Assembly: GCF_021054785.1 (NCBI RefSeq)
Contig: NZ_CP088239.1
Coordinates: 1,710,001 to 1,742,000 of the forward strand
Source: Tannockella kyphosi
GTDB lineage: Bacteria; Bacillota_I; Bacilli_A; Erysipelotrichales; Coprobacillaceae
DNA: 32,000 nucleotides
Reading direction: 5' to 3'
In this document: in pieces, positions 14,946 through 28,577 of the stretch
Position numbering within the stretch: position 1 is the stretch's first letter
Layout of the letters: the number at the start of each line of letters is the position of its first letter
Notes under the pieces: generated by a model
Seen by the model: the letters and a program-made list of their open reading frames with translations, nothing else
What the model was told of the DNA's origin: nothing
Database searches by the model: none
Translations under genes and position numbers: made by a program

Positions 14946-15021
14946 GCTTGAGTAGCTCAGTTGGTAGAGCAATCGGCTGTTAACCGATCGGTCGCAGGTT
15001 CGAGTCCTGCCTCAAGCGCCA
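14946..15021 (+). tRNA. tRNA-Asn (GTT), CCA encoded
   Basis: The acceptor stem is GCTTGAG/CTCAAGC. The D arm is TAGCTCAGTTGGTAGAGC, the anticodon loop is CTGTTAA and the T arm is GCAGGTTCGAGTCCTGC. Confidence 0.93.
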
Positions 15022-15024
15022 TGT

Positions 15025-15100
15025 GGCTCGTTGGAGAAACGGTTAACTCACTTGCCTTTCACGCAAGCATTCACGGGTTCGAATCCCGTACGAGTCACCA
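15025..15100 (+). tRNA. tRNA-Glu (TTC), CCA encoded
   Basis: The acceptor stem is GGCTCGT/ACGAGTC. The anticodon loop is CTTTCAC and the T arm is ACGGGTTCGAATCCCGT. Confidence 0.92.
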
Positions 15101-15103
15101 TAT

Positions 15104-15179
15104 GGAGGTTTAGCTCAGTTGGGAGAGCATCTGCCTTACAAGCAGAGGGTCAGCGGTTCGAGCCCGTTAACCTCCACCA
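15104..15179 (+). tRNA. tRNA-Val (TAC), CCA encoded
   Basis: The acceptor stem is GGAGGTT/AACCTCC. The anticodon loop is CTTACAA and the T arm is AGCGGTTCGAGCCCGTT. Confidence 0.92.
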
Positions 15180-15199
15180 TTTTATTTGTTTGTTTGCTT

Positions 15200-15275
<76 letters not shown>

Positions 15276-15281
15276 TTTTTT

Positions 15282-15357
15282 GACCTGCTAGCTCAGTTGG
15301 TAGAGCATCTGACTTTTAATCAGAGGGTCAGGCGTTCGAGTCGCCTGCGGGTCACCA
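15282..15357 (+). tRNA. tRNA-Lys (TTT), CCA encoded
   Basis: The acceptor stem is GACCTGC/GCGGGTC (one G-U pair). The anticodon loop is CTTTTAA and the T arm is AGGCGTTCGAGTCGCCT. Confidence 0.92.
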
Positions 15358-15379
15358 TTTTAATTTATTTTTTTCATAT

Positions 15380-15463
15380 GCGGGTGTGGCGGAACTGGCA
15401 GACGCACTAGACTTAGGATCTAGCGCCTTTGGCGTGCAGGTTCGATTCCTGTCACCCGCACCA
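15380..15463 (+). tRNA. tRNA-Leu (TAG), long variable arm, CCA encoded
   Basis: The acceptor stem is GCGGGTG/CACCCGC. The anticodon loop is CTTAGGA, the variable arm is GCGCCTTTGGCGT, and the length is 84 nt. Confidence 0.92.
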
Positions 15464-15500: not shown

Positions 15501-15513
15501 TTTGTTCATATTA

Positions 15514-15555
15514 TTTACTTTTTATTATAAAGAAGAGTATACTTTGTATATACAA
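15514..15555 (+). promoter_or_regulatory. Promoter (TTTACT-N18-TATACT) plus perfect 12-bp palindrome TTGTATATACAA
   Basis: The palindrome (15544-15555) starts 1 nt after the -10 hexamer and lies 22 bp upstream of the rubredoxin-operon start, so it is in an operator-like position. Confidence 0.35.
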
Positions 15556-15576
15556 TATAAGAAGGAGAATACGAAA

Positions 15577-16206
15577 ATGGAGAAATGGAAATGTTCCATA
15601 TGTGGATATATCCACGATGAACAAGAAAATGGTTTATTCAAAGAATTACCTGATGAATATGTTTGTCCTTTATGCAAAGCTGAAAAATCAGCGTTTGTCT
15701 TAGTAGGAGAAACTGTTATCAAAAAAGAAACAAACACGAATATTTTATTAAAAGAGTTTTATGAATTTACGAACCTAGAAAAAAGTATCCTTTGTTCAAA
15801 TCTAGCAAGAGGATGTCAAAAACAATACTTAGAAAGAGAAGCATCTTTATTTACTCAACTGGCCAATTATTTTCATTCAAATAAAGAAAATGCAATATCT
15901 AATGATTTCGTTAATTTAGTTAGCTTAAATAAATTTGATATAGACTCACTTATCCCAACTATTGAAGCCGTTAGTACCAAACATAATGACCGTGGTGCTC
16001 TCCGTGCTTTAGCATGGAATCAAAAAGTATCCATGATTTCTTATCAAATAATGGAGAACTACAAAAAAGACAAAACCTTAGAAAATCAAAGAATTCATGT
16101 TTGTACTATTTGTGGATTTATTTATATTGGTGATTCTTTGCCAGAATTATGTCCGATATGCAAAGTACCAAACTATAAGTTTGAAGAAATCAAAGGAGGT
16201 CTATAA
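15577..16206 (+). CDS. Rubredoxin / rubrerythrin-like helical domain / rubredoxin fusion protein (209 aa)
   Basis: The N-terminal rubredoxin reads WKCSICGYIHDE...YVCPLCKAEKSAF. The C-terminal rubrerythrin-type rubredoxin reads HVCTICGFIYIGDSLPELCPICKVPNYKFEEI. AAGGAG lies upstream of ATG 15577; the track start at 15502 has no RBS. Confidence 0.75.
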   Translation: MEKWKCSICGYIHDEQENGLFKELPDEYVCPLCKAEKSAFVLVGETVIKKETNTNILLKEFYEFTNLEKSILCSNLARGCQKQYLEREASLFTQLANYFHSNKENAISNDFVNLVSLNKFDIDSLIPTIEAVSTKHNDRGALRALAWNQKVSMISYQIMENYKKDKTLENQRIHVCTICGFIYIGDSLPELCPICKVPNYKFEEIKGGL

Positions 16207-16207
16207 A

Positions 16208-16792
16208 ATGTCAAAATCATATGCTGTGCGTAATATAGCACTATGTACAAAAGATTGTTTATGTCTTTATGTTTGCCCTACTGGTGCGGCAGATACTGAA
16301 AACAGTATTATCGATATGGAAAAATGTATTGGATGTGGAGCTTGTGCAAACGCTTGTCCTTCTCGTGCCATATCTTTGGTTCCTAGGGAATTCCCACCTC
16401 AACAAAGACACGATGATGAAGTATTACTTGCAATGAATACATTATTATCAAGCAAAGCAAACCAAGAAAATATAGCGAGTACAATTGATAGTAAATTAGC
16501 CAAAGCAATTGAAAAATCGAATCGTATTATGGCAGAAGACATTATCCGAGAAGCTGGCTATATGTTGCCTCAAAGTGCAAATACTAGAACTTTCTTAGAA
16601 TCACAAGTGGATAACCCAGATATCAAAGAAATCGTTACTGAATTAATGAGTTTGATTCAACCCAATGAAAAAGTAGTTACCAAAGAAATTTGGACATGTT
16701 CTATTTGTGGTTATATCCACACTGGTGAAATGAGTCCAGACTTTACTTGCCCTCTTTGCAAGCAACCAGCTAGCGCATTTACAAAATCCTAA
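16208..16792 (+). CDS. 4Fe-4S dicluster ferredoxin domain / linker / rubredoxin fusion protein (194 aa)
   Basis: One cluster motif is atypical (CTKDCLCLYVCP) and one is canonical (CIGCGACANACP). The C-terminal rubredoxin reads WTCSICGYIHTGE...FTCPLCKQPASAF. AAAGGAGG lies upstream, and the gene starts 1 nt after the previous stop. Confidence 0.75.
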   Translation: MSKSYAVRNIALCTKDCLCLYVCPTGAADTENSIIDMEKCIGCGACANACPSRAISLVPREFPPQQRHDDEVLLAMNTLLSSKANQENIASTIDSKLAKAIEKSNRIMAEDIIREAGYMLPQSANTRTFLESQVDNPDIKEIVTELMSLIQPNEKVVTKEIWTCSICGYIHTGEMSPDFTCPLCKQPASAFTKS

Positions 16793-16799
16793 AAAAAAG

Positions 16800-16824
16800 A
16801 CACCGGCACGAATGCTGGTGTTTT
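16800..16824. terminator. Bidirectional terminator between convergent genes
   Basis: The hairpin is ACACCGGC-ACGAAT-GCTGGTGT (one G-U pair). It is flanked by A8 on the left and TTTT on the right. Confidence 0.65.
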
Positions 16825-17725
16825 ATTCTGTCGTTGTATCTTGCGAGTCATCAGTTACTGTATCATCACTTAATGAACTATCATCTTCTTGAGTATCCGT
16901 TGAATCACTATCATCTCCCGTTGAAGAATCATCCGGAGTTGTATTATCATCTAACGATGTATCATCTGATGCACTGTCATCATCCGTGACATCTGACGAA
17001 GTGCTATCATCTAAACTATCTGATGATGAACTATCACTAGAACTATTTGATGAAGAACTAGTTGTACTATTTGATGATGAACTATCACTAGTGCTGTTTG
17101 ATGAGGAACTAGTTGTATTACTTGCTACCTCTTCCTCTTCTTCCTCTACATATACAAGAATAACAGACTCCACACTATTTCCACTATCATCTGTTGCAAT
17201 CACTTTTACTTCATATTGCCCAGCATTCGTAGCATCATAATCAATATCTTCAAACTCCAATGTTACATCGGATAAATCATCAACGCTAACATACTCTTCA
17301 AAATCAATCAAAGCATAATCCGTACCTACTTCTACTGTCACATCACTAATTTCTTCAAACACAGGTACTGTCGTATCAACAATACAAACCTCAAATATTT
17401 GTACATCTCCTAAATAATTAGCTGTCCCTTGATAGTCCCCTTTAGCAGGATATTCTTGATCTTGTTCATATACGAAATCTATATCAATAACAGTATCTTC
17501 TAATAGATTTGTATTATTACTATCTACAAATTCACTAATCTCTAAAGATATTATTTCTCCATATTCATAATAGAAAGTTTCATCATATAAAACCAATATC
17601 TCTTCATCTTCTTCTATCACTTCTTCTTGCGTCATGTCTAACAAATAAACACCTACAAATAATGCAAATGACAAAAATACTGCAATACCTTTTTTTAAAT
17701 TCGTATCAAAGAAATTATCTATCAT
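16823..17725 (-). CDS. Membrane-anchored surface protein with an Ig-like (DUF5011/HYR-like) domain and a Ser/Asp/Thr-rich tail
   Basis: The N-terminal TM segment is GIAVFLSFALFVGVYLL. The Ig-like segment reads DTTVPVFEEISDVTVEVGTDY...GQYEVKVIATDDSGN. An E6 tract and about 100 aa of low-complexity S/D/T sequence follow. Confidence 0.65.
   Translation of the reverse strand: MIDNFFDTNLKKGIAVFLSFALFVGVYLLDMTQEEVIEEDEEILVLYDETFYYEYGEIISLEISEFVDSNNTNLLEDTVIDIDFVYEQDQEYPAKGDYQGTANYLGDVQIFEVCIVDTTVPVFEEISDVTVEVGTDYALIDFEEYVSVDDLSDVTLEFEDIDYDATNAGQYEVKVIATDDSGNSVESVILVYVEEEEEEVASNTTSSSSNSTSDSSSSNSTTSSSSNSSSDSSSSDSLDDSTSSDVTDDDSASDDTSLDDNTTPDDSSTGDDSDSTDTQEDDSSLSDDTVTDDSQDTTTE
17016..17117. repeat. 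Tandem 51-bp repeat (2 copies) inside the Ser-rich tail
   Basis: The copies are 17016-17066 and 17067-17117. Each encodes a 17-aa Ser-rich unit, and they differ at a few positions. Confidence 0.75.
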
Positions 17726-17798: not shown

Positions 17799-18959
17799 TT
17801 ATAATTTAAATATTTCCAATTTCTTTACTTCAATTGCCTTTACTGGACATACTTCATGACAACAAAAACAATGAATACATTGTTTACGAATAATTTTTGC
17901 TTTTTTATCTTTTATTATAATAGCATCTTTTGAACATATTTCCTTGCATTTCCCACAACCAATACATCTTTTTTTATCAATAACAGGATGTGGTGCAATA
18001 GTATGTTCTATTTTTTTAACAATAGGACGAATAAAACTTGGAACAAATGCTGCAAAATCAGTATTCGCATTATTTTTACCAGTATAACTTTCTGGTAATT
18101 TCCAATTAGAAATAGGTTCTAATAATGTTTCATCACCAACTATATCTTTTTTATCAAAAGATTCACTACATAAATTACGACTATTTGCTGCTTTTAAATA
18201 AGGAACACGCATCGCATTTAAATTCATCATGCCTGCTATTGCTAGATCCAGTTGGTACATATTTTCACTAGCCATTACGATTCCAACATTGCGGGGATTT
18301 CCCCCAGCAGGTCCGTCTCCTTCCATCGCTAATATTCCATCCACAATAGCAATATTGGGAGGTATCGCCTCCAATAAATCTACTATCATATGTCCAAATC
18401 TCTCTTTATCAGGAAAACGCATATGCCATTCTGATTTTTTTAACCCTGGTATAATACCAAACATATTTTTACAAGCTGCACTCATTCCTGTCATAACATG
18501 TGTTTTCATTTTCGGTAAGTTAATAATATAATCTGCTTGTAAAACAGGATTGATAATATCAAATTGTTTAGCAACTTGTCCATCTATATCTATGGTTGTA
18601 GATTGACATAATGTATATAAAGCAACCCCTTCTTCGTTACATACTTTCGTCAACCCACAAACTTGATACAATGATTTCATTTGACCAGAATTATATATTC
18701 CTCCAGCAGAATCTAAAACTAAGATATTTTCTCTTTTAGCTCCTCTTGAAAGACAAGCTTTTATTGCTCCTCTTAGTATTTCAGGATGAGTCGTAACTGC
18801 ATGTTCTGGAATATGTTTTGCAAGTAGATTGGGTTTTAAGATTATTTTCGTATTCTCATTAATCTGTTTTGTACTTTCCAGCTGACAAAACATATCCTCC
18901 ACCACTTCAACAGCATCTTGATAACCATTCACTTTTTTAATATATACTTTTTCTTTCAT
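17799..18959 (-). CDS. DUF362-domain protein with C-terminal 2x[4Fe-4S] ferredoxin domain
   Basis: The C-terminal cluster motifs are CIGCGKCKEICSKDAI and CIHCFCCHEVCPVKAI. The N-terminal region of about 300 aa resembles the DUF362 family by eye (LKPNL..., DGILAMEGDGP). Confidence 0.7.
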   Translation of the reverse strand: MKEKVYIKKVNGYQDAVEVVEDMFCQLESTKQINENTKIILKPNLLAKHIPEHAVTTHPEILRGAIKACLSRGAKRENILVLDSAGGIYNSGQMKSLYQVCGLTKVCNEEGVALYTLCQSTTIDIDGQVAKQFDIINPVLQADYIINLPKMKTHVMTGMSAACKNMFGIIPGLKKSEWHMRFPDKERFGHMIVDLLEAIPPNIAIVDGILAMEGDGPAGGNPRNVGIVMASENMYQLDLAIAGMMNLNAMRVPYLKAANSRNLCSESFDKKDIVGDETLLEPISNWKLPESYTGKNNANTDFAAFVPSFIRPIVKKIEHTIAPHPVIDKKRCIGCGKCKEICSKDAIIIKDKKAKIIRKQCIHCFCCHEVCPVKAIEVKKLEIFKL

Positions 18960-18976
18960 ATCTAACTCCTACTTAA

Positions 18977-18996
18977 AAAGCAGATTACTCTGCTTT
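18977..18996 (-). terminator. Hairpin/terminator between the lipoprotein gene and the DUF362 gene
   Basis: The minus strand reads AAAGCAGA-GTAA-TCTGCTTT followed by TTAAG. It overlaps the lipoprotein stop codon and lies just upstream of the DUF362 RBS. Confidence 0.45.
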
Positions 18997-19954
18997 AGTT
19001 TATTGCCATACAATATTTTTGTTCCCCAATCACAAAACGTAATACATTTGAACCAGTAATTTTTTCATCTTCTATTTTTGCAATAGCATGAATAGTTACT
19101 ATATCCCCTTGTTCCATACTTTCATAATCACCTGTAATAAAATCACTTCCATCACTTTCTTCCAATAACAAAGTACCTAAATAAGATTGATAATCTTCCA
19201 ATACAAAAATAACTTCTAATAAATCTTCTAACTCCATATCATCTTGTCCTAAATACTCTATTTCAAAAACCACATGACCATACTTACTCTCTTCTAGGCT
19301 TAAATCATAAAAAGTATAAAAATAATCATGATTTGTTGGTTCCACAATATCACTATACTCTAATGTTGTTACTTTCAAACTACATAAATCTTCTATTTCA
19401 ATTACTTCATTTAATTCTACTTCTTGATAACCTAACATCATTGCTTCTTGATAAGAACCTGGATTCGTTATATCATTTTGATCTTCTAGTACATATTCAT
19501 TATCTCCAACATTGAACGTCATTTCTAACGCTAAACTATCTTCACTCATTTCATAAGGTACTTCAAAAATAAAATGCATATAAGTATCTTGGTCTGTCGT
19601 ATAGGTAGATGCAAAATTATTTTCTAATTCAATCTTTTCTTCTGCAAAATAAGTAGTTGACTCATGAATTACTGTTAAATCTAACTCCTGTTGCCAATCC
19701 ATTTCTTGTGTTACATTTGTTATTGCTACAATAACATGAAAGAAAATACTATCTTCTTCACTAACAACATAACTAGTATAAGCCCCATCTTTTGTAACAG
19801 GATTTATTTCATATGCGAATTCAATTGTATCAATTGTTATATTATATCCATCACATTCAATTTCATCCATTAAATAAACAACTTCGCTCTCTTTAGCGTT
19901 TGCACATCCAACCAATAAGATAGATAGAGCAATAAATAAAACTATTTTTTTCAT
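18995..19954 (-). CDS. Acidic lipoprotein of unknown function, two-domain
   Basis: The signal peptide has a lipobox (MKKIVLFIALSILLVGC). AGGAG lies upstream. No catalytic motif was seen. Confidence 0.7.
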   Translation of the reverse strand: MKKIVLFIALSILLVGCANAKESEVVYLMDEIECDGYNITIDTIEFAYEINPVTKDGAYTSYVVSEEDSIFFHVIVAITNVTQEMDWQQELDLTVIHESTTYFAEEKIELENNFASTYTTDQDTYMHFIFEVPYEMSEDSLALEMTFNVGDNEYVLEDQNDITNPGSYQEAMMLGYQEVELNEVIEIEDLCSLKVTTLEYSDIVEPTNHDYFYTFYDLSLEESKYGHVVFEIEYLGQDDMELEDLLEVIFVLEDYQSYLGTLLLEESDGSDFITGDYESMEQGDIVTIHAIAKIEDEKITGSNVLRFVIGEQKYCMAIN

Positions 19955-19962
19955 ATTTTCTC

Positions 19963-20628
19963 CTAATCTTCTAGTAATTCCTTTACTACAGGTATAATCT
20001 TACTTGATAAAAGTTGATAACCAGTATCACTAAGATGTAAACCATCCACATAGTATTCTAATACACCTTCCTTATTTTCGTCTACAAATTCTTCATAAAC
20101 ATTTAAAAAACTTGTTTTTTTATCACGAATCAATTCTTGATACATCATAAAAATCATTTCTAATAATACATTATTACGAATACCACCTTCTATTTGATAT
20201 CCTTTTAAATGTTCTACACAAGGCAAAGTAGAAACTAACAATATTTTTGTTTCTGGTAAATTACCACGAATAATATCAATAATCATTTTTACATTTAAAG
20301 CAATATTTCTAGGAGAATCCTTTAAACGTATCCCTAAATCATTTGCACCTACTAAAAGAACTACTACTTTAGGATTATACTTAATAACACCTTCATCAAC
20401 AACTGTTAATAACTGTTGAGAAGTTGCACCACTAATACCACAATTATATTTAATAGGAAATGTTGGATAATAGGTATCTATATCACATTGTTCTGTAATA
20501 GAATCTCCAAAAAATACAACTCCACCTTCTTTACAATCTTGATTTGTTTCTACAATTCTTAAAATTGTTCTCACTTGAAAATCTCTTAACTGACTATACC
20601 CTGGGTTATAACTCATTGATTCTTTCAT
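19963..20628 (-). CDS. SGNH/GDSL-family hydrolase
   Basis: The block I motif is VFFGDSITEQ, block III is LLVGANDL, and block V is DGLHLSDTGY. Confidence 0.8.
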   Translation of the reverse strand: MKESMSYNPGYSQLRDFQVRTILRIVETNQDCKEGGVVFFGDSITEQCDIDTYYPTFPIKYNCGISGATSQQLLTVVDEGVIKYNPKVVVLLVGANDLGIRLKDSPRNIALNVKMIIDIIRGNLPETKILLVSTLPCVEHLKGYQIEGGIRNNVLLEMIFMMYQELIRDKKTSFLNVYEEFVDENKEGVLEYYVDGLHLSDTGYQLLSSKIIPVVKELLED

Positions 20629-20668
20629 CTTATTTTTCTCCCTCTATTTTTTACAATTATAGCACAAT

Positions 20669-20699
20669 AAAAGGATAAGCACATTGTGTTTATCCTTTT
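20669..20699 (-). terminator. Second terminator downstream of hppA
   Basis: The stem AAAAGGATAA/TTATCCTTTT has extra pairing inside the loop. On the minus strand it is followed by TTTTATT. The extended -10 of the SGNH gene (TGCTATAAT) lies just beyond it. Confidence 0.6.
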
Positions 20700-20718
20700 A
20701 TGAAAATCATTTTTCCAT

Positions 20719-20742
20719 AAAAAAAGGTCTTACGACCTTTTT
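20719..20742 (-). terminator. Primary rho-independent terminator of hppA
   Basis: The minus strand reads AAAAAGGTC-GTAA-GACCTTTTT followed by TTTATGG. It abuts the stop codon. Confidence 0.7.
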
Positions 20743-22927
20743 AACTAAAGAATTGTAAAATAAAGGAAACTAGGTTAATTTGAGCAAATACTGGTACTAC
20801 TACTAAAGATACGGTTGACATAATTTTAATAAAGATATCTAAACAAGGTCCTACTGTATCTTTTAGTGGATCCCCAACTGTATCTCCTACTACGGCAGCA
20901 CTATGAGCCATACTTCCTTTTCCATAATTTTCTAATCCATCTGCTTCAATATATTTTTTAGCGTTATCCCAAGCTCCACCAGAATTTCCACTGAAAATAG
21001 CGATCATAATAGCACAAATTGTTGCACCAATAATCATACCACCTACAAACTCTGGCCCAAAAACAAATCCAGAAACAACAGGAACTACGATTGCAAGCAT
21101 ACTAGGTACTTTCATTTCTGCAATTGCTCCTTTAGAAGAAATTTCAATACAGCTTTTATAATCAGGTTTCCCAGTTCCATCTAAAATACCTGGAATTTCT
21201 CTAAACTGACGACGTACTTCACTAACCATTTTACGTGCAGATTTACCTACAGCTTCAATTAACATTCCTGAAAATAAGAATGGTAAAGCTCCACCAACAA
21301 CAACACCTGCTAACACCATCGGTGACATAACATTAAGAACTAGTTCCGTTGCAACATCATTATAAGAATATAAGTAGGATATCATCAAAGCTAATGCAGC
21401 TAATGCTCCAGAACCAATGGCAAATCCTTTACCAATCGCTGCTGTTGTATTTCCAACAGAATCTAAAGTATCTGTTATTTTACGTACTTCTGGGTCTAAT
21501 CCACTCATTTCTGCAATACCACCTGCATTATCAGAAATCGGACCGTAAGTATCTACAGAAACAGTTGCAGTTACAAAAGATAACATTCCTACTGCAGCCA
21601 TAGAGACACCATACATACCAGAAACCATATAAGAAAGTAATATACTAGTTGCTAGTACAATAGCTGGAGCCATTGTAGATTTCATACCTAAAGCCAATCC
21701 TTGCGTAATCGTAATAGCTGGTCCTTCTGTTGCAGAATGAGCTAATAGTCTTGTTGGATTATAGTCAGCAGAAGTATAATGTTCTGCAATTGTACCAATG
21801 ATTACTCCTGCAACCACACCAACAGTAGCTGCTATCCATGGAGAAAATGCTCCCATTGTAAACCCTAATGCATCTTTCATTACTTGTCCATCCATTGAAC
21901 TAAACATAAAATAAGAAACACCAAGACCTAATGTAATGGTTAATATAGCTGCCATATAAGTAGCACCATTTAAATCCTTATGTGGATTATCAGACATATT
22001 CTTTTTAAACAATAAAGATGCAATCGCAATAATACATGCAATCAAACCTACTGATACCAACACTAAAGGAAATAAAATACAACGTTCTAATAAATCAGTA
22101 GTCATCCCTGTACCTAAAGCAGTTGATTGCAACAACATATGATAAGCTAAAATAATACCTGCCGAAATAGAACCAACAAAACTTTCTAATAAATCCGATC
22201 CTAACCCCGCTACATCACCAACATTATCCCCAACATTATCTGCAATCGTTGCTGGATTTCTTGGATCATCTTCTGGTATATGAGCTTCTGTTTTTCCAAC
22301 TAAGTCTGCACCCATATCAGCCGCTTTGGTATAAATACCTCCACCAACACGATTAAACATCGCCACAATAGAACACCCTAATGCATATCCTGATAAAGTC
22401 ATTGTAAAAGGAATAAAACTTAATCCTAATAAATTAACATACGTTGCTTCTGTTACATAAACTTGTCCCATCATAATACCAAAGACAACATAAACAATAA
22501 ACAATCCTAATAAAGCAAACCCTCCAACACATAAACCCATAACTGAGCCACCTTGAAAAGCTACCTTTACAGTTTCACCAATATCTCCTGTTTCTCTAGC
22601 TTTATTAGAAACACGAACATTTGCATAAGTAGCAATTTTCATTCCTATCATTCCAGCAAAACCAGACATAACAGAACCAAGAACTAACGCTACTGCTGCA
22701 TGCCATGTTGTAATAAACGCTAAAACAACTGCAACTACTATCACTACCGAATAAAGAATCTTATACTCATAACGGATGAATGCATTCGCTCCTACTCTAA
22801 TAGCATCAGCTATCTCACTCATCTTTTCTGTTCCCTCTGGCATCTTTTTCACTTCTTTAAAATTAAAAGCTGCAAAAGCCAAAGATAAAATTGCTGCAAA
22901 AGCAACTACTACAATAACTACTTCCAT
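20741..22927 (-). CDS. hppA: Membrane-bound cation-translocating pyrophosphatase, K+-dependent type
   Basis: It is a multi-pass membrane protein. Family motifs include DNVGDNVGDVAG, GNTTAAIGKGFAIGS and GDTVGDPLKD. The start was moved to ATG 22927, which has AGAGGAGAA upstream. Confidence 0.93.
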   Translation of the reverse strand: MEVVIVVVAFAAILSLAFAAFNFKEVKKMPEGTEKMSEIADAIRVGANAFIRYEYKILYSVVIVVAVVLAFITTWHAAVALVLGSVMSGFAGMIGMKIATYANVRVSNKARETGDIGETVKVAFQGGSVMGLCVGGFALLGLFIVYVVFGIMMGQVYVTEATYVNLLGLSFIPFTMTLSGYALGCSIVAMFNRVGGGIYTKAADMGADLVGKTEAHIPEDDPRNPATIADNVGDNVGDVAGLGSDLLESFVGSISAGIILAYHMLLQSTALGTGMTTDLLERCILFPLVLVSVGLIACIIAIASLLFKKNMSDNPHKDLNGATYMAAILTITLGLGVSYFMFSSMDGQVMKDALGFTMGAFSPWIAATVGVVAGVIIGTIAEHYTSADYNPTRLLAHSATEGPAITITQGLALGMKSTMAPAIVLATSILLSYMVSGMYGVSMAAVGMLSFVTATVSVDTYGPISDNAGGIAEMSGLDPEVRKITDTLDSVGNTTAAIGKGFAIGSGALAALALMISYLYSYNDVATELVLNVMSPMVLAGVVVGGALPFLFSGMLIEAVGKSARKMVSEVRRQFREIPGILDGTGKPDYKSCIEISSKGAIAEMKVPSMLAIVVPVVSGFVFGPEFVGGMIIGATICAIMIAIFSGNSGGAWDNAKKYIEADGLENYGKGSMAHSAAVVGDTVGDPLKDTVGPCLDIFIKIMSTVSLVVVPVFAQINLVSFILQFFS

Positions 22928-23247
22928 ACTATTTTCTCCTCTTTCGACAGTCTCCCTACTGTCTAATTCTATATAACACCATAAAAATCCACCCCCCAGT
23001 TTCATTTTTATATCATTATATAAGGAATTTGAAATAATACCCCAATAAAGCTATTATAACAATTTTTTCACATAAAGAATATACTTTTCCCTTATAAATC
23101 TTATTCAACTTGCTTCTTTTTATGAAAATATATTTGCAACTTATAATTTCAAATGTTGTTTTATTCAAATACTACAAATTACTCTATTATCAGGATTCTA
23201 CATATTATCTAACATAAAAATTCAAATTAACATTCATAACATTCCAC

Positions 23248-23264
23248 TAGCATTAGTGATGCTA
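23248..23264. promoter_or_regulatory. 17-bp palindrome TAGCATTA-G-TGATGCTA
   Basis: 7 of 8 arm positions pair. It lies 22 bp beyond the ImmA stop codon in the 358-bp non-coding region upstream of hppA. The loop is too small for a good terminator, so a protein-binding site is more likely. Confidence 0.3.
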
Positions 23265-23285
23265 CGTTTTATCAAAAATAAGTCA

Positions 23286-24038
23286 TCATTCATTTAAATC
23301 CACACCTTCATCACTTATTCCATAAACTATATCAGATCGATATGCATCCAATAACAATTCCGCTCTTTTTCCATTACTCACCAACTCTTTTTGTGCGATT
23401 TCTTCCACAATTCGAATATATTCACCAGTTGTAAAATACTTCTTATTATTCGGTGATTTCATATACAAATCAGGTTCATAACCTAATTTCATCGCTTCTC
23501 TAGTTATACCAATATTTGAAAACTTATCATAGTCACCATAACTTATATAGTTTTCTGTACATAACCTTAGTAACATTGCAGTATGACTGATTTGAAAAAA
23601 TTGTTCTGCTCGTATTATTTCCTCTATCGTCCATTCTCTTACACCATCTTGATATTGTCTTAAAGCATCATATGGCATTAATAGATAAGAGGCAAACATG
23701 TCAGCTTCCTTTTCAGAATCATTTTTTTCACCTTTTAACTTCATATCACAAACGACATTTTTTAAACCTTCCTCAAACAGTACATGATAAAGTTCATGAG
23801 CCAATGAAAATCTTTGCCTTCCTAGTGAGGTTTCAGAATTAATACCTATTAAAATATAATCCTCTGTTTTTGTACACATACCACTTATTCTAGATGATAA
23901 CGGATAATAAATAATAGTTATTTTCATTTCTTTCCACGCATTAACATGAGCAAATATATCAATTGGAGAATACGCATCCTCGTTAAACCATTTTCTTACT
24001 TTTAAAGCATACGAATTAAGTTCAATCTCTTTTTTCAT
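23286..24038 (-). CDS. ImmA/IrrE-family zinc metallopeptidase
   Basis: HELYH (HEXXH) is followed by EKEADMFASYLLMP, the family signature. ATG 24038 has GGAGG 9 nt upstream and overlaps the XRE gene by 17 nt. Confidence 0.85.
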   Translation of the reverse strand: MKKEIELNSYALKVRKWFNEDAYSPIDIFAHVNAWKEMKITIIYYPLSSRISGMCTKTEDYILIGINSETSLGRQRFSLAHELYHVLFEEGLKNVVCDMKLKGEKNDSEKEADMFASYLLMPYDALRQYQDGVREWTIEEIIRAEQFFQISHTAMLLRLCTENYISYGDYDKFSNIGITREAMKLGYEPDLYMKSPNNKKYFTTGEYIRIVEEIAQKELVSNGKRAELLLDAYRSDIVYGISDEGVDLNE

Positions 24039-24378
24039 CTTCGTTTTCCTCCACAATGCGACTCATAAATCTTATATTAGCTGCTATTTTATTCATCATT
24101 GCAATACTTTCTAAATCTTCTACTTCAATATTATTAGCTCTGAACGCAAAATCAAGAGGCACAAACCCTTCTTCTTGTCCAAAAAGATATTCTTCACTGC
24201 AACCATATAAATTACATAGTTTTTCAATCAGTTCAACACTTAACTTCCTTGTTCCATTTTCTAATTTAGCTACCATACTTTGATCAACTTTTAAATATTT
24301 GGCCATTTGTTCTTGTGTTATTTTACTTCCTTTTCTCAAACTCTTTAACTTTTGACGAACCACATCATTTTTCTCCAT
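24022..24378 (-). CDS. XRE-family helix-turn-helix transcriptional regulator
   Basis: The HTH_3 motif reads KITQEQMAKYLKVDQSMVAKLENGTRKLS. The start is probably ATG 24378 (GGGAG upstream); the track start is 24393. Confidence 0.85.
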   Translation of the reverse strand: MEKNDVVRQKLKSLRKGSKITQEQMAKYLKVDQSMVAKLENGTRKLSVELIEKLCNLYGCSEEYLFGQEEGFVPLDFAFRANNIEVEDLESIAMMNKIAANIRFMSRIVEENEDEKRD

Positions 24379-24416
24379 AACAGCATCTCCCATTTTTCTT
24401 TTTATCTTACAATATA

Positions 24417-24471
24417 ATTATAACATATATTGTCATATTTTTAATGCTGTTTATAGTTGATTTTATGACAA
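24417..24471. promoter_or_regulatory. Back-to-back promoter/operator region upstream of xre
   Basis: The minus strand carries an extended -10 (TGTTATAAT) at 24417-24425 for xre. The plus strand carries TTGTCA-N16-TATAGT at 24430-24457. The inverted repeat TTGTCATA (24430-37) / TATGACAA (24464-71) brackets the plus-strand promoter. Confidence 0.4.
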
Positions 24472-24596
24472 CACTATTTATTTCAAATAATACATGTGGT
24501 TTTTACAATAATAAAAGAGAGAAACCTGCAAAGCCTCACGTTATCTCTCTAATTTGTTTGATAATTATTTTCCTTTTTACTAACAAAAGTATCTAA
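24465..24596 (+). CDS. Candidate 43-aa small ORF with hydrophobic C-terminus (possibly leaderless)
   Basis: It reads MTTLFISNNTCGFYNNKREKPAKPHVISLICLIIIFLFTNKSI. The ATG lies 7 nt after the TATAGT -10 and there is no SD. It was not in the ORF track because it is shorter than 60 aa. Support is weak. Confidence 0.15.
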   Translation: MTTLFISNNTCGFYNNKREKPAKPHVISLICLIIIFLFTNKSI

Positions 24597-24650
24597 TACC
24601 TTTCTTCAAGGAGCAACCACATTACTTTGTAGTTCTTAGATTCAGCTTTT

Positions 24651-27554
24651 TTATTTTTCAGTAATATAACGATAGACATCTTCTCGAATCGGTGTCTCTA
24701 ATTGCCATTCTATTTCTACTACTGATACTTTTGTATTTGGCATAACAACTTCTTCCGCTTTACCTGTTGCATTCATTCTCCCTAGATAATAAAATTCTTT
24801 TGCAGTCTTATCATCTTTGTTTTTTCTAACAAACAAATCAACTTTAATATTCTCTTTTTTTGCACCCAAGAACATTTGAACATCTTTTGATAATAAGTTT
24901 TTATTTTGTTTAGATATTGCAATTATTTTATCAGAAGAAATAAAACGATCTTCATAACGAGTCTCATCATTTATATCACTATCTTTTTCATAATTAATAA
25001 AAACAGGAAATGTTCTTGTTTTTTCATTATATAAGTATCCACCAATGTTTTGTGCCACAATACTTTGATGCCACTCTAATAATCTACACACATCCTCATA
25101 CGTATATTTTTGATATAAAACAAGAGAAGAGTTTAGATATCTATTACTATAATATTTATGATAACGATATTTACCATACGCTATTAATTCAACTATCATT
25201 TCTTTAAAATTATAATTATTTAAGTAATTCGAAAATTCATCACTAATCTTTACACCATCTGATGTTTTAACAACAAAACAACAATCTTGATATGTTTTTG
25301 TTGAAATCCCAGTAATAAAATTAGCAGATAATACATTTACAACATTCTCAATCGTATTTCCACTTACCACAATATTATGTTTTGTTTGCATCACTTCTTT
25401 AAAAGTAGTTTCGACATCTTTTCCATCTAATAAAATAGATAGCATTTCTAACTCATGTACACGTTTGGCATTGAGTAGTTTCTTAGATATAAATTCTATC
25501 ATTCTATCTTCTACAGGAGACAATCTAACAACATAATCTTTTTCATACTTCACTAAAAATTTATAATAAGAACCAAGTGTTTGATGATCAAAAATACATT
25601 GCACATCCATTTCACCATATATCTCAAAATCCATCAATGTTGGTATTTTCCCAATTTTATTCTTTAAATTCGTATAATTTTCTTTAATCAATCGAACAAC
25701 ACTAAAATTAGCCGCATCGATAGATTCAAATATTTTTTTCTTTGCTATTGCATCAAAATGAATTGTTGAAGTTCCAGGAATAATTCTCTCTCCCTCCATT
25801 ACAAATCGACGAATCGTATCCTTGTTAAAACTACGATCACCATACAAAGCTATTGGTATCATAAAATTAGTTTCATAGTTTCCAATAAAATCCAATATAA
25901 CGACATAATCTTTCTCGTTGTCTTTTCTAAGCCCTCTCCCTAACTGTTGCACAAATACAGTTGGACTTTGTGTTGGTCTTAACATCACGACTTGATTTAC
26001 CTCAGGTATATCCACACCTTCATTAAATATATCAACTGTTAGTAAATAGTCTAATTTGTCATTTCTGTGATCACTTACTAGTCTTTGAATAGCTATTTCA
26101 CGTTTTTCTTGTGAGTCACTACCACTTAATACAAGTGTAGATAACCCTCTTTCATTCATTTTCTCACTTAACTCTTTTGCTTCTTCATTGCGACTACAAA
26201 ACATCAATCCTTTTACTCGATCTCCCGAATATCCGTAATATGCCGCTTTTTCCATAATATAATCAACACGTTCTTCACATATTAAATCATTGAAATCTGA
26301 TTGTTTATTTATCAATACTTCTCCATCGACATGAAAATCAGTCACACCAAAATAGTGAAACGGGCACAACATATCTGCTTCCATCGCTTGTTGAAGACGA
26401 ATCTCGTAAATAATATTATGATCAAACATTCCATAAATATCAATCCCATCCATTCTTTCAGGACTTGCAGTCATTCCAAAATAAAAGCTAGGCAAAAAAT
26501 ATTTCATAATACTATTATAACTTAATGATCCTGCTCGATGAACTTCATCAATAATAATGACATCAAATTCAGATTTATCAAACTTAGAATAAACCTCTTC
26601 TTTTGCCATCATATTCATTGTTGAAAACAAGTAATCTACATTTGTTTCTTTCGAAGTTCCTGATAATAATCCAAATGTTTTCGTATTACCAAATATATTT
26701 TTAAAACTTTTTATAGCTTGTTTTGCAATTTGTTCTCTATGTACAATGAATAATACTTTTTTAGGATTCTGTTCAAACATACTAAATGCTGCCGCATATG
26801 TTTTTCCAGTTCCTGTCGCAGAAATAAGAAGCCCTCTTTTTTCTCCCTTTTTTAATAATTCTTGATAGTTATGAATTACCTTTTGTTGCATTTCATTTGG
26901 TTTTAAGTCATAGATGATGGTTTGTTCTTCTTTTTTAGCAATTACTTTTTTCTTAGCATACTCTATTTCATAGTTTTCTATAAATTCATTAAACTGATAA
27001 GTATCCTCACTAACCCACAATTCTTCAAATTCCTCTAAAATATGATGAATATATTCACCTTGACTTGTAGAAGTAACCTTTGTATTCCATTCCTTATTCA
27101 CACTTAATGCTTTCGCTGTTAAATTAGAACTACCTACAATAACGGTATAATTGCTATCATTCTTAAAAATATATCCTTTCGTATGGAAACCAACATTTCC
27201 TGATTCATACATTCTAAGTTCTATATTACGATAAGAATTTAATTTATGCAGTGCCTTCGGATCTGTAAACATTAAATAGTCCGTAGTTAGCACTCTTCCC
27301 TTAATACCTTTTTGTTCTAACACTCGTAACGTTTCTAAAAGTTGTACTAACCCACTTTGTGTAACAAATGCGACACTAATTATAAATTCTTCGCATCGAT
27401 TAAACTCTGTTTCTAATGTAGTTAACACTCTTTTTCTCTCTTTATAATTATTGGAAACAAATTCCGGTTTATAAGAAGATGTTTTTTTACTAGCAGCATC
27501 AATAAACGCTATTTCTAATCCATCTTTTATTTCTTGTATTACTTTATTAGACAT
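24651..27554 (-). CDS. HKD (PLD-family) nuclease / SF2 DEAD-DEAH (ResIII-type) helicase / DUF3427 fusion protein, 967 aa
   Basis: There is a single HKD motif (GFHTKGYIFKNDSNYTVIVGSSNLT). The helicase motifs are Walker A LISATGTGKT, motif II IIIDEVH, motif III MTASP and motif VI QQLGRGLR. The C-terminal 330 aa or so carries a DUF3427-like signature (LFVRK...FYYLG). AGGAG lies 8 nt upstream of the ATG. Confidence 0.85.
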   Translation of the reverse strand: MSNKVIQEIKDGLEIAFIDAASKKTSSYKPEFVSNNYKERKRVLTTLETEFNRCEEFIISVAFVTQSGLVQLLETLRVLEQKGIKGRVLTTDYLMFTDPKALHKLNSYRNIELRMYESGNVGFHTKGYIFKNDSNYTVIVGSSNLTAKALSVNKEWNTKVTSTSQGEYIHHILEEFEELWVSEDTYQFNEFIENYEIEYAKKKVIAKKEEQTIIYDLKPNEMQQKVIHNYQELLKKGEKRGLLISATGTGKTYAAAFSMFEQNPKKVLFIVHREQIAKQAIKSFKNIFGNTKTFGLLSGTSKETNVDYLFSTMNMMAKEEVYSKFDKSEFDVIIIDEVHRAGSLSYNSIMKYFLPSFYFGMTASPERMDGIDIYGMFDHNIIYEIRLQQAMEADMLCPFHYFGVTDFHVDGEVLINKQSDFNDLICEERVDYIMEKAAYYGYSGDRVKGLMFCSRNEEAKELSEKMNERGLSTLVLSGSDSQEKREIAIQRLVSDHRNDKLDYLLTVDIFNEGVDIPEVNQVVMLRPTQSPTVFVQQLGRGLRKDNEKDYVVILDFIGNYETNFMIPIALYGDRSFNKDTIRRFVMEGERIIPGTSTIHFDAIAKKKIFESIDAANFSVVRLIKENYTNLKNKIGKIPTLMDFEIYGEMDVQCIFDHQTLGSYYKFLVKYEKDYVVRLSPVEDRMIEFISKKLLNAKRVHELEMLSILLDGKDVETTFKEVMQTKHNIVVSGNTIENVVNVLSANFITGISTKTYQDCCFVVKTSDGVKISDEFSNYLNNYNFKEMIVELIAYGKYRYHKYYSNRYLNSSLVLYQKYTYEDVCRLLEWHQSIVAQNIGGYLYNEKTRTFPVFINYEKDSDINDETRYEDRFISSDKIIAISKQNKNLLSKDVQMFLGAKKENIKVDLFVRKNKDDKTAKEFYYLGRMNATGKAEEVVMPNTKVSVVEIEWQLETPIREDVYRYITEK

Positions 27555-27576
27555 ACCATCAACTCCTATCTTTAAA

Positions 27577-27611
27577 ATTATAGCATTATCTAAAATGCGA
27601 TCATAGCATTA
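27577..27611 (-). promoter_or_regulatory. Helicase promoter region with two TAATGCTAT(A/G)AT repeats 23 bp apart
   Basis: The minus strand carries TGCTATAAT (an extended -10) at 27577-27585 and a second copy, TGCTATGAT, at 27600-27608. On the plus strand these read ttatagcatta and tcatagcatta. Confidence 0.45.
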
Positions 27612-27617
27612 GATAAC

Positions 27618-27651
27618 AAAAAGGACTATTTCTGGTAAAAACAGTCCTTTT
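27618..27651 (-). terminator. Terminator insulating the helicase gene from udp read-through
   Basis: The stem is AAAAGGACT/AGTCCTTTT with a 15-nt loop. On the minus strand it is followed by TGTTATC. Confidence 0.5.
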
Positions 27652-27783
27652 CTAGCCTATAATTCAATAAGCAAGATTTTTAATTTATTCATTTTCATAT
27701 CCAACAATCTTTTATATCCTATTACTTTTTGCTCCTCGCCTTTCAACTTTTGTCCTATAAATCTATCCTCTTTATTTATGATA

Positions 27784-27809
27784 AAAGAGGTGTATTACTA
27801 CACCTCTTT
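27784..27809 (-). terminator. Terminator of udp
   Basis: AAAGAGGTGTA/TACACCTCTTT is an 11-bp perfect stem with a 4-nt loop. It overlaps the stop codon and is followed by T-rich sequence. Confidence 0.6.
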
Positions 27810-28577
27810 GTCTTCTTCTATTAAAATACGAATTGCTTCTATTGCTACTTTAATTGGTAATTCTGTATCATGGACAATTGGATTTTCCATTCCTAATGCA
27901 TTACGTTCTTGATTACCCATTACTAAGAAATTGGATCCACAACGTACTTTCAAATGACTTGCAACAATAAATAAGGCTGCTGATTCCATTTCAGAAGCTT
28001 TACATCCTAGTCTTTTCCAAGCTTCCCATTTATTTAACAATTCATAACTTACTGGCATTACTTCTGGTTCATGTTGACCATAAAAAGCATCTTTACATTG
28101 AACTACACCTGTATGATAGGGTGCTCCTAATTTTTTAGATGCTTTTACCAAAGCATTTGTGATATCTAAATTAGCGACTGCAGGGAATTCAATAGGAGCA
28201 TATTCTTTACTTGTTCCTTCATTACGAATAGCGCCTGTTGCAATAACAACATCTCCACCCTTTACATCTAAATCAATACCCCCACAAGTACCAACACGAA
28301 TAAATGTATCAGCACCACAACGATACAATTCTTCCATTGCAATAGAAGCACTAGGCCCACCAATTCCAGTAGAAGTTACACTTACTTTCACTCCGTTTAA
28401 CCATCCTGTATACGTAACATATTCTCTACTATCTGCCATTAATACTGGATTATCAAAAAAAGCCGCTATTTTAGCACATCTTTTAGGATCTCCTGGTAAG
28501 ATAACATATCTACCAACATCCCCTGGTCTTAATTGAACATGATATTGTAATTGTTCATCATCTGTATACTTTTGCAT
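27798..28577 (-). CDS. udp: Uridine phosphorylase-family nucleoside phosphorylase (PNP_UDP_1)
   Basis: Recognised from [37 protein letters not shown] and SEMESAALF. The uridine versus purine specificity was not resolved by eye. Confidence 0.75.

Follow-up and report, generated by a model that had tools for sequence, protein, structure and literature searches.

Positions 23193 to 27764 of the window (the whole 32,000-nucleotide stretch of the Tannockella kyphosi chromosome that was analyzed) are best read as a swappable defense cassette. The cassette would combine a SauUSI-family Type IV enzyme with the remnant of a separate XRE/ImmA/PIN-like operon, the two lying side by side by chance, and we put the probability of this reading at roughly 0.8. 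It is not a new kind of defense system, since the family of the large gene has already been named and the module to which the small genes belong has already been predicted.

A sequence-only reading of the same DNA had proposed a self-contained accessory module of three genes, and its description of the DNA largely held. All three open reading frames (ORFs) lie on the minus strand where they had been placed (24651 to 27554, 24022 to 24393, and 23286 to 24056). Pfam recovers the claimed fusion of nuclease, motor, and DUF3427 domains in the 967-amino-acid (aa) protein (PLDc_2, ResIII/DEAD, Helicase_C, and DUF3427), and the XRE-HTH and ImmA genes (HTH_3 and Peptidase_M78) do overlap. Core genes flank the segment on both sides, with matches to H+-PPase (E value of 3.6e-242) and PNP_UDP_1. 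The two hairpins noted toward udp both fold well on the minus strand, the gap of about 270 bp from the restriction gene stop codon to the XRE start measures 257 to 272 bp, and the extended -10 element and ribosome binding site (RBS) of the large gene are present as sequence matches only. The window, including the surroundings of the XRE/ImmA pair, is free of integrase and phage genes, as had been stated; the only mobile-element gene in it is an ISL3 transposase at 2783 to 4264, some 19 kb from the module. The limits proposed for the module proved slightly too narrow, and the inventory had missed a third hairpin and the stub of a third gene (Table 1).

The proposal of an accessory insert at the hppA-udp junction was borne out by comparison with a sister strain. 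Three of its contigs match the window at 99.2% identity on either side of the cassette, up to position 23192 and again from position 27765 on. Between the same breakpoints they hold 3,858 bp unrelated to the window cassette, encoding two C5-cytosine methyltransferases and a Type II restriction endonuclease. The site therefore has two alleles, a predicted Type IV enzyme in one strain and a Type II restriction-modification (R-M) system in the other, which makes it a clean, small case of alternative defense cassettes in near-identical strains. A Logan metagenome contig of 4,639 bp is identical to window positions 23163 to 27801 and stops at both junctions. The terminator hairpin of udp sits in the conserved flank, outside the cassette.

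Table 1. Features of the cassette between udp and hppA and of its udp-side flank (window positions).
Feature	Positions	Strand	Basis or remark
Variable cassette, 4,572 bp	23193..27764	.	Between udp and hppA; sister-strain comparison
udp terminator hairpin	27784..27809	-	Consensus scan; fold -15.3 kcal/mol, z -6.4; kept in sister strain
Terminator-like hairpin inside cassette	27618..27651	-	Fold -17.9 kcal/mol, z -4.7; 0/200 shuffles fold as well
Putative -10 (TGcTATAAT, 27577-27585) and RBS (AGGAG, 27563-27567) of restriction gene	27563..27585	-	Sequence reading only
Predicted SauUSI-family restriction gene, 967 aa	24651..27554	-	PDB 7clg_A and PADLOC mREase_IV matches
PLD-family (HxK) nuclease domain, residues 62-180	27015..27371	-	Pfam PLDc_2, E 2.2e-12
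SF2 helicase-like ATPase/translocase, residues 217-543	25926..26906	-	Pfam ResIII, E 6.4e-37; Helicase_C, E 7.8e-17
DUF3427 region, residues 688-965	24660..25493	-	Pfam DUF3427, E 1.8e-83
Terminator-like hairpin (24516-24550) and T-tract, between restriction gene and XRE	24505..24550	-	-13.0 kcal/mol, z -2.3
Putative XRE operator TGTCATA-N26-TATGACA	24431..24470	.	Inverted repeat; proximal half-site abuts -35
Putative XRE promoter TTAAAA, 16 nt, TG-TATAAT	24417..24444	-	Consensus scan 10/12 plus TG extension
XRE-family HTH repressor, 118 aa as called	24022..24378	-	HTH_3, E 5.1e-15; ORF open to 24393
ImmA/IrrE-family (M78, COG2856) zinc metallopeptidase, 250 aa	23286..24038	-	Peptidase_M78, E 3.6e-16; ORF to 24056
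19-codon stub (MNDDLFLIKRSITNASGML*), putative third-gene remnant (PIN-like, DUF3368)	23234..23293	-	Start shared with relatives' third gene

[quoted passage not shown] The assignment follows from full-length matches to the SauUSI structure and to a PADLOC profile and from conservation of the catalytic motifs. Residues 4 to 965 align collinearly with residues 3 to 952 of SauUSI from Staphylococcus aureus (PDB 7clg_A; E value of 2.7e-209; 38.4% identity), and the PADLOC mREase_IV profile PDLC03658 matches over positions 3 to 952 of 953 (E value of 8.3e-212). In the nuclease domain, the counterparts of SauUSI H119 and K121 are H124 and K126, in columns that are invariant in 81/81 aligned homologues; H119A is the nuclease-dead mutant of SauUSI (PMC7913695). 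The ATPase consists of a ResIII/DEAD part (residues 217 to 367) and a Helicase_C part (448 to 543), and its Walker A GKT (250 to 252), DEVH (336 to 339), and motif VI R543 are likewise invariant among the 81 homologues. The DUF3427 region corresponds to the coupler and the SRA-like target-recognition domain of SauUSI. The two proteins thus share the domain order of PLD nuclease, SF2 ATPase, coupler, and SRA-like/DUF3427 within a single gene. They differ in that identity is only 38%, that the host here is a gut bacterium of the Erysipelotrichia, and in two residues of the modeled 5-methylcytosine (5mC) pocket. The idea that the large gene is a defense gene is well supported by these matches, while the idea that its architecture is unnamed and uncharacterized is not, given that the architecture is that of SauUSI. 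NCBI names the protein only as a "DUF3427 domain-containing protein," so that the practical value here lies in annotation: it can now be named as a SauUSI-family Type IV restriction enzyme.

The 5mC pocket of SauUSI, itself a model, is partly retained. Its residues F841, I842, and D858 are kept as F852, I853, and D869, and a Tyr stands opposite Y831 in the alignment. All 80 members of the clade have Ile in place of M829 and Ala in place of W868, so 2/6 residues of the modeled pocket differ. Because W868, a residue modeled to stack on 5mC, is Ala throughout the clade, any exact modification specificity is tentative. SauUSI acts alone, without a companion methylase (PMC3141236); no methylase ORF occurs in the cassette, and tblastn with C5-methyltransferases found none in the window. 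Following the mechanism described for SauUSI (PMC7913695), the 967-aa protein would dimerize via its N-terminal PLD nuclease domains, and its C-terminal SRA-like domain would read a modified cytosine (5mC or 5-hydroxymethylcytosine) in incoming DNA. Recognition would then activate the SF2 ATPase for translocation along the DNA, which would be cut or shredded.

Such an enzyme would require neither a partner protein nor a methyltransferase, and its gene has promoter-like and terminator-like signals of its own. The putative RBS lies 8 nt before the ATG, and an inverted repeat, TTATCTAA-N15-TTAGATAA, overlaps the promoter region. The hairpin at 27618 to 27651 is located upstream of this promoter and is likely to act as an insulator against read-through from udp. 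At the other end of the gene, the hairpin between the restriction gene and XRE is followed by the T-tract UUUUAUUAUU.

The XRE and ImmA genes, which overlap by 17 nt as called, form a second unit with a single promoter-like site and an operator upstream. PADLOC profiles match XRE as capH (3.8e-8) and PDC-M69A (8e-6), and ImmA as PDC-M69B (7e-21) and, in its N-terminal part only (profile positions 9 to 151 of 242), as capP (9.3e-29). The HEXXH motif of ImmA (AHELYH, 23784 to 23798) is invariant in 22 family members. A scan of the 32-kb window returned a single copy of the operator motif, the one at the XRE promoter, against an expectation of 0 in shuffled sequence. Eight relatives, L094 and L174 among them, have the repeat in the corresponding position before XRE, within differing flanks. 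Nucleotide homology to the relatives begins at the operator (24470-24471), continues 16 nt beyond the ImmA stop codon, and ends at 23270. Both small ORFs are intact, and all family-invariant residues as well as the operator are kept; therefore, selection probably still acts on the pair to preserve some function. An HTH repressor paired with a COG2856 zinc peptidase and a palindromic operator overlapping the promoter are features shared with CapH/CapP, as well as with DdrO/IrrE and ImmR/ImmA. Unlike ImmR/ImmA, the window pair has no integrative element or prophage context and no integrase or excisionase nearby. A prophage origin of ImmA was considered and rejected: the family is nearly absent from IMG/VR viral contigs, where the scan returned one match at 31% identity. 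CapP-type peptidases carry a GAF sensor domain at the C terminus, and ssDNA stimulates their cleavage. To look at the C-terminal part of ImmA, an AlphaFold model was built from a 22-sequence alignment; its mean pLDDT was 57.7, with values below 50 in the C-terminal part, which is too low for a fold search.

Comparison with relatives suggests that the pair is what is left of an autonomous operon of XRE, COG2856 metallopeptidase, and PIN-like DUF3368 genes. Relatives at 58 to 76% identity carry a PIN-like third gene, encoding 172 to 193 aa, that overlaps the ImmA stop codon. The window stub begins in the same overlap, and its first 6 residues match the MNEDLF or MTDDLF of the relatives' third gene. 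A count over the ImmA-family loci gave 36 with a full-length third gene, 10 with a truncated one, and 5 with none, and the truncation series runs through 180, 128, 87, 57, 45, and 19 codons. The PIN/DUF3368 label comes from precomputed Pfam annotation, apparently of a newer release; a direct Pfam search of three third-gene members gave only PF01850 PIN, in one of them (E value of 0.023), and a profile search of PDB sequences with the third gene gave nothing meaningful. An Xre/COG2856 (DUF955, ImmA-like)/PIN-like (COG2405, equivalent to DUF3368) combination has been predicted to be a three-component, toxin-antitoxin-like system (PMC2701414, Makarova 2009; PMC5499597, Matelska 2017). Our search turned up no experimental work on the family, and the system stands as a bioinformatic prediction. 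The window copy resembles it in having overlapping XRE and M78 genes in one operon and a kept HEXXH, and differs in having a third gene reduced to 19 codons, which would make it a degenerate, incomplete member. In an intact operon, XRE would presumably bind the operator over its own promoter, and ImmA would cleave XRE upon some stress signal, derepressing the PIN-like effector. With the effector gene deleted to 19 codons, what the window retains would be a self-regulating repressor/protease pair whose only evident target in the window is its own promoter. For testing the three-component toxin-antitoxin prediction of 2009, the conserved operon of XRE, ImmA, and PIN-like genes, together with its operator, is a defined place to begin.

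Both units can be interpreted differently. The 967-aa protein might have the SauUSI architecture and yet act on another DNA modification, or serve in DNA repair. Its low identity to SauUSI and the clade-wide changes at W868 and M829 are in keeping with this, as is the occurrence of DUF3427 in enzymes of varied modification specificities among those treated in PMC6765204. However, the alignment to SauUSI is full length and collinear, no nuclease or ATPase motif is disrupted, and the F, I, D, and Y of the modeled pocket are kept. The alternative allele at the site is, moreover, a C5-cytosine methyltransferase system, with which a 5mC-dependent enzyme is expected to be mutually exclusive. We consider a different target or a repair role quite unlikely. 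The XRE/ImmA pair, for its part, might be functional by itself and not a decaying remnant, either as an Xre/COG2856 toxin-antitoxin system, as the PADLOC candidate "PDC-M69," or as a repressor/anti-repressor of genes at other loci in the genome. Its intact ORFs, the retained HEXXH, invariant residues, and operator, and the PDC-M69A and PDC-M69B matches would fit such a role. Five family loci lack a third gene despite having room for one, and two-gene ZnMP/HTH-Xre pairs figure among the toxin-antitoxin systems reported in PMC10538038. The stub and the graded truncations of the third gene show recent loss, however, and no second operator is present within the 32-kb window, and we regard a stand-alone function as unlikely.

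The sequence-only reading had joined the three genes into one system, in which XRE/ImmA would be co-opted as a damage- or infection-responsive switch of the SauUSI-like gene, comparable to CapH/CapP for CBASS. The capH and capP matches would agree with this, and CapH/CapP-like pairs are known beside several defense systems (10.1101/2022.04.27.489752). In addition, the gene order recurs in L094, where a SauUSI homologue (63% identical) is likewise followed by XRE and ImmA and the third gene is cut to 80 aa; decay of the third gene in both cases would fit replacement of the effector. This shared order could hint at a nonrandom association. Nevertheless, a switch of the 967-aa gene is not supported, and the evidence goes against it. 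The restriction gene promoter lacks the XRE operator motif, and 27555 to 27764 contains not even a half-site. In all cases described, CapH/CapP are encoded upstream of, and divergently from, the operon that they control, and CapH binds the promoter of that operon (10.1101/2022.04.27.489752). The window pair, in contrast, follows the restriction gene on the same strand, with a terminator-like hairpin in between and its operator at its own promoter only, and the capP profile match of its ImmA covers the peptidase half only. The usual companion in the family of the window pair is the PIN-like third gene. SauUSI homologues number at least 7,990 proteins at E ≤ 1e-100. When the 80 closest GTDB-representative SauUSI-homologue loci were searched with phmmer (E ≤ 1e-3), an ImmA homologue within 6 kb was found at 0/80, with the proviso that a very distant M78 could escape a single-sequence query; co-occurrence of the two units is weak. 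The closest SauUSI homologue (62% identity) has a NUDIX gene directly next to it and no ImmA. Reciprocally, only 1 of approximately 40 ImmA-family loci with enough upstream sequence has a SauUSI homologue there; upstream neighbors at other loci include an epimerase, tRNA synthetases, DnaJ, a hydantoinase, a Dam-type methylase, and Wadjet. The spacers between the SauUSI-like gene and XRE in the window and in L094 are not homologous. In L174, whose ImmA is nearly identical to that of L094, the third gene is intact and the upstream sequence has no SauUSI homologue. SauUSI itself requires no regulator (PMC3141236). Taken together, a switch-controlled single system is very improbable.

A narrower version, confined to the small lineage of the window and L094, is that an Xre/ImmA module that had lost its PIN-like effector came to control the neighboring SauUSI-type enzyme in response to stress, or to serve it as a safety switch. 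If true, this would place a Type IV restriction enzyme under the control of a cleavable repressor, and we rate it as a very slim chance. More probable than such a takeover is an incompatibility between the two alleles of the udp/hppA site. A predicted methylcytosine-dependent nuclease occupies, in one strain, the slot of a cytosine-methylating R-M system in the other. The SauUSI-like enzyme would read 5mC, and the Type II R-M system would write it. The two may be functionally incompatible and in this way keep up a barrier that blocks DNA exchange in both directions between strains of one gut symbiont that reside together. In this symbiont, the alleles would lend themselves to the study of incompatibility-driven cassette turnover. 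For transformation of Tannockella kyphosi, a barrier to Dcm-methylated DNA is to be expected, as with SauUSI in staphylococci. Candidate target motifs (SCNGS, GCSGC, and CCWGG) were counted in both cassettes, in numbers too small to interpret.

The cassette has a GC content of 0.294, versus 0.310 for the whole window, and shows no compositional signal of recent foreign origin because its GC content matches that of the genome. A search for flanking repeats common to both junctions found none, and no recombinase was identified. A 19-nt imperfect direct repeat (84%) is present at 23083 to 23101 and 27746 to 27764, the latter copy ending at the udp-side breakpoint. As a signal of the cassette ends it is probably a chance match, since its other copy is in the flank, 92 bp away from the hppA-side breakpoint. 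Variation of defense cassettes at a fixed chromosomal site, between conserved anchors that are here udp and hppA, resembles the immigration control region of Escherichia coli, for which cassette-like variation of restriction genes at one site is mentioned in PMC12707154 (citing Sibley & Raleigh 2004). The organism and the anchor genes are different here, and two alleles were seen.

The three open reading frames (ORFs) that the sequence-only reading had described between hppA and udp were confirmed, all on the minus strand. Pfam assigned PLDc_2, ResIII/DEAD, Helicase_C, and DUF3427 domains to the large protein and HTH_3 (XRE) and Peptidase_M78 (ImmA) to the small ones, and it identified the flanking genes as encoding an H+-pyrophosphatase and a PNP_UDP_1 uridine phosphorylase. 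As called in public assemblies, the XRE and ImmA genes overlap by 17 nt. The window's udp, ImmA, and 967-aa proteins show 100% identity to NCBI entries for Tannockella kyphosi (Erysipelotrichales). Since the ORFs and domains were confirmed, both previously named hairpins were far more stable than shuffled sequence, and TGcTATAAT and AGGAG were found upstream of the large gene, the features of the module were real and correctly described. What did not hold was their interpretation as an uncharacterised defence system. The locus is a SauUSI-family Type IV restriction enzyme with an adjoining remnant of a predicted Xre/COG2856/PIN-like module, and both lie within one swappable cassette.

Coordinates of features at the cassette locus
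Feature	Window position	Strand	Remarks
967-aa restriction gene	24651-27554	-	ORF call
Terminator-like hairpin and T-tract	24505-24550		between restriction gene and XRE promoter
XRE ORF	24022-24393	-	public-assembly gene callers start at 24378, giving 118 aa
M78 peptidase (ImmA) ORF	23286-24056	-	public-assembly gene callers start at 24038, giving 250 aa
Third-gene stub, 19 codons	23234-23293		opens with MNDDLF, six residues that agree with the N terminus of full-length proteins

PADLOC model PDLC03658, for Type IV methyl-directed restriction enzymes, aligned along its full length with the 967-aa protein (E 8.3e-212), and a PDB search returned the SauUSI crystal structure, 7CLG (E 2.7e-209, residues 4-965 against 3-952), with 38.4% identity to SauUSI. 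SauUSI, a Type IV restriction endonuclease that depends on ATP and consists of one protein, combines a PLD nuclease at its N terminus with a helicase-like ATPase and, at its C terminus, a DUF3427 domain; no methylase accompanies it, S5mCNGS sites are its preferred targets, and in S. aureus it is a major obstacle to transformation (PMC3141236). Recognition of methylated sites leads to ATPase-driven translocation, and the DNA between sites is shredded (PMC7913695). In an alignment of the window's protein with SauUSI and 79 homologues, the nuclease residues H124 and K126 (SauUSI H119 and K121) were invariant, as were the Walker A GKT, the DExH Glu and His, and the motif VI arginine. Of six residues that are modelled in SauUSI as holding the flipped 5mC, four are kept. 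With full-length matches and conserved nuclease and ATPase motifs, membership in the SauUSI family is secure, and the enzyme is likely to depend on 5mC or 5hmC. SauUSI W868, modelled as stacking on the flipped 5-methylcytosine, is replaced by alanine (A879 in the window's protein) in all 80 Clostridia/Erysipelotrichia homologues examined, and M829 by isoleucine in most of them; this clade may read the modified base differently from SauUSI. The family is very large (7,990 or more proteins at E ≤ 1e-100), and NCBI names the Tannockella member just "DUF3427 domain-containing protein."

The limits of the cassette became clear from other assemblies. One metagenome contig (4,639 bp) has exactly the sequence of window 23163-27801, stops at those positions at both ends, and holds just these three genes. 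The sequence-only reading had proposed comparing the hppA-udp junction among relatives, and in a sister strain (contigs L082, L083, and L085, from the same run series, with a udp 99% identical to that of the window) the window's insert is indeed replaced by a different cassette. There the flanks are 99.2% identical, the match ending at 27765 next to udp and at 23192 next to hppA, and between these breakpoints lie 3,858 bp of unrelated DNA (L083:5892-9749). This alternative insert encodes two C5-cytosine DNA methyltransferases of 314 and 425 aa (51% mutual identity); the other strand codes for a Type II restriction endonuclease of 379 aa whose C-terminal DNA-binding domain is of the NgoFVII type. 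Because the flanks match while the inserts differ, the module in fact spans 23193-27764, and the udp/hppA site is a slot for alternative defence cassettes. Nucleases that depend on 5mC and systems that write 5mC are known to be incompatible. The window allele is likely, from its protein sequence, to be a 5mC-reading nuclease where the sister strain holds a 5mC-writing system; the two-allele pattern fits such incompatibility, which we infer for this site.

The hppA gene is not a fixed anchor across the genus, since it is absent from the site in a more distant relative (L091-L093; ∼78% nucleotide identity to window 17799-28577). In that relative, a GDSL lipase gene comes straight after udp, with a DUF362/Fer4 gene behind it, and the position has neither the cassette nor hppA (20741-23005) nor the 319-aa ORF (18995-19954). 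The longest hppA ORF in the window (minus strand) begins 26 codons before the likely true start, MEVVIVVV..., in the stretch 22925-23005, and its Pfam H_PPase match starts at residue 39. With the true start likely 26 codons further in, the non-coding spacer between cassette and hppA is longer than the ORF list implies. The cassette has the same GC as the genome, and no repeats or recombinase were found at its junctions. A 19-nt imperfect direct repeat (84%) occurs at 23083-23101 and 27746-27764, the latter copy ending exactly at the udp-side breakpoint and the former 92 bp beyond the breakpoint on the hppA side. The repeat is probably due to chance, but recombination that brought in the cassette could have left it as a trace.

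The relatives of the ImmA protein form a tight family (250 aa, 58 to 76% identity) in which HEXXH is invariant. In a survey of about 65 loci from genomes and metagenomes, XRE lay directly upstream of ImmA in nearly all, and ImmA was usually followed by a third gene whose start overlaps the ImmA stop codon. The third gene was full-length (172 to 193 aa) in 36 loci, truncated (45 to 137 aa) in 10, and absent from 5 despite room for one; in the window a stub is left. Precomputed Pfam annotation assigns it to DUF3368 (PF11848), apparently from a newer Pfam release, judging by version numbers. The label is probable rather than certain because our own Pfam scans of the third genes of L097, L099, and L145, for which the precomputed annotation lists PF11848, did not recover it even at E ≤ 10 and gave just PIN at E 0.023 in one member. 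Matelska et al. place DUF3368 with COG2405 as a PIN-like family (PMC5499597), and the same three-component TA was predicted by Makarova et al. in 2009 (PMC2701414). Nucleotide homology between the window and three related loci (L094, L172, and L174) spans 24470-24471 to 23270, beginning at the first half-site of a putative operator and stopping 16 nt beyond the stop codon of ImmA.

This operator, the inverted repeat TGTCATA-N26-TATGACA, occupies the same position in the XRE promoter region of at least eight relatives with differing surroundings. The window has one copy (24431-24470; 0 expected by chance), and the 210 bp that precede the restriction gene contain no half-site. As the operator is present only at the XRE promoter and a hairpin lies between the units, the restriction gene and XRE/ImmA would appear to be transcribed and controlled separately. 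The restriction gene promoter region (27555-27620) contains an inverted repeat, TTATCTAA-N15-TTAGATAA, and a direct repeat, TAATGCTAT x2, that overlaps the -10 element. Neither repeat is related to the XRE operator, and they may be a binding site of another regulator.

CapH/CapP is one precedent for the proposal that XRE/ImmA switches the restriction gene, and the small proteins do match the PADLOC capH and capP profiles, capP just over the peptidase half. By analogy, the pair probably works as those switches do, with the protease cleaving the repressor; an AlphaFold model of the ImmA C-terminal part was too low in quality for use. However, all CapH/CapP-like pairs found by Lau et al. lie upstream of the controlled operon on the opposite strand, and CapH binds the promoter of that operon (10.1101/2022.04.27.489752), whereas the window's pair is not so placed and the restriction gene promoter lacks its operator. 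By these features the pair does not qualify as regulator of its defence-gene neighbour. Nor did the expected co-occurrence emerge: an ImmA homologue lay within 6 kb in 0 of the 80 closest SauUSI-homologue loci in species-representative genomes, with a weak XRE match in 3, and from the ImmA side, among loci whose upstream sequence extended 1 kb or more, only L094 had a SauUSI homologue upstream (63% identical). There is a small chance that XRE/ImmA was taken over to control the restriction enzyme: both small ORFs are intact in the window, and L094 has the order SauUSI homologue, XRE, ImmA too, its third gene likewise decayed. The chance is larger that the pair still has a function of its own; both proteins match the XRE/M78 pair of the PADLOC candidate system PDC-M69.

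Other upstream neighbours of ImmA-family loci include genes for an epimerase, a kinase, tRNA synthetases, DnaJ, a hydantoinase, a Dam-type methylase, and a metallo-beta-lactamase-fold protein, and a Wadjet JetABCD operon. The ImmA of L174 is almost the same as that of L094, yet L174 has an intact third gene and lacks a SauUSI homologue upstream. The closest SauUSI homologue of all (L170, 62% identity) has a NUDIX gene directly after it, an order shared by L094, where the XRE-ImmA block is inserted between the two. Given these varied neighbours, the L174 arrangement, and the L094 insertion, the comparisons indicate a module that moves on its own. Almost no ImmA family members were found in viral contigs, and no phage or ICE genes lie near the pair in the window. 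In another relative (L099:1-9285), a complete Wadjet-like operon (DUF2397, DUF2398, SbcC_Walker_B, and DUF3323/JetD) directly precedes an intact XRE-ImmA-DUF3368 module and shares its strand, which mirrors the arrangement beside the window's SauUSI-like gene.

Elsewhere in the window, the only mobile-element gene encodes an ISL3-family transposase (DDE_Tnp_ISL3, E 5.8e-39; 2783-4264, plus strand), ∼19 kb from the cassette. The ORFs at 16823-17725 (300 aa) and 18995-19954 (319 aa), both on the minus strand, matched nothing in Pfam at E ≤ 1e-5. A local GC peak of 0.49 is accounted for by six clustered tRNA genes (Asn, Glu, Val, Thr, Lys, and Leu; 14946-15463, plus strand). Two plus-strand ORFs with rubredoxin/rubrerythrin-type domains, 15502-16206 and 16097-16792, overlap by 110 nt; they could be separate genes or parts of a single gene that a frameshift has divided.
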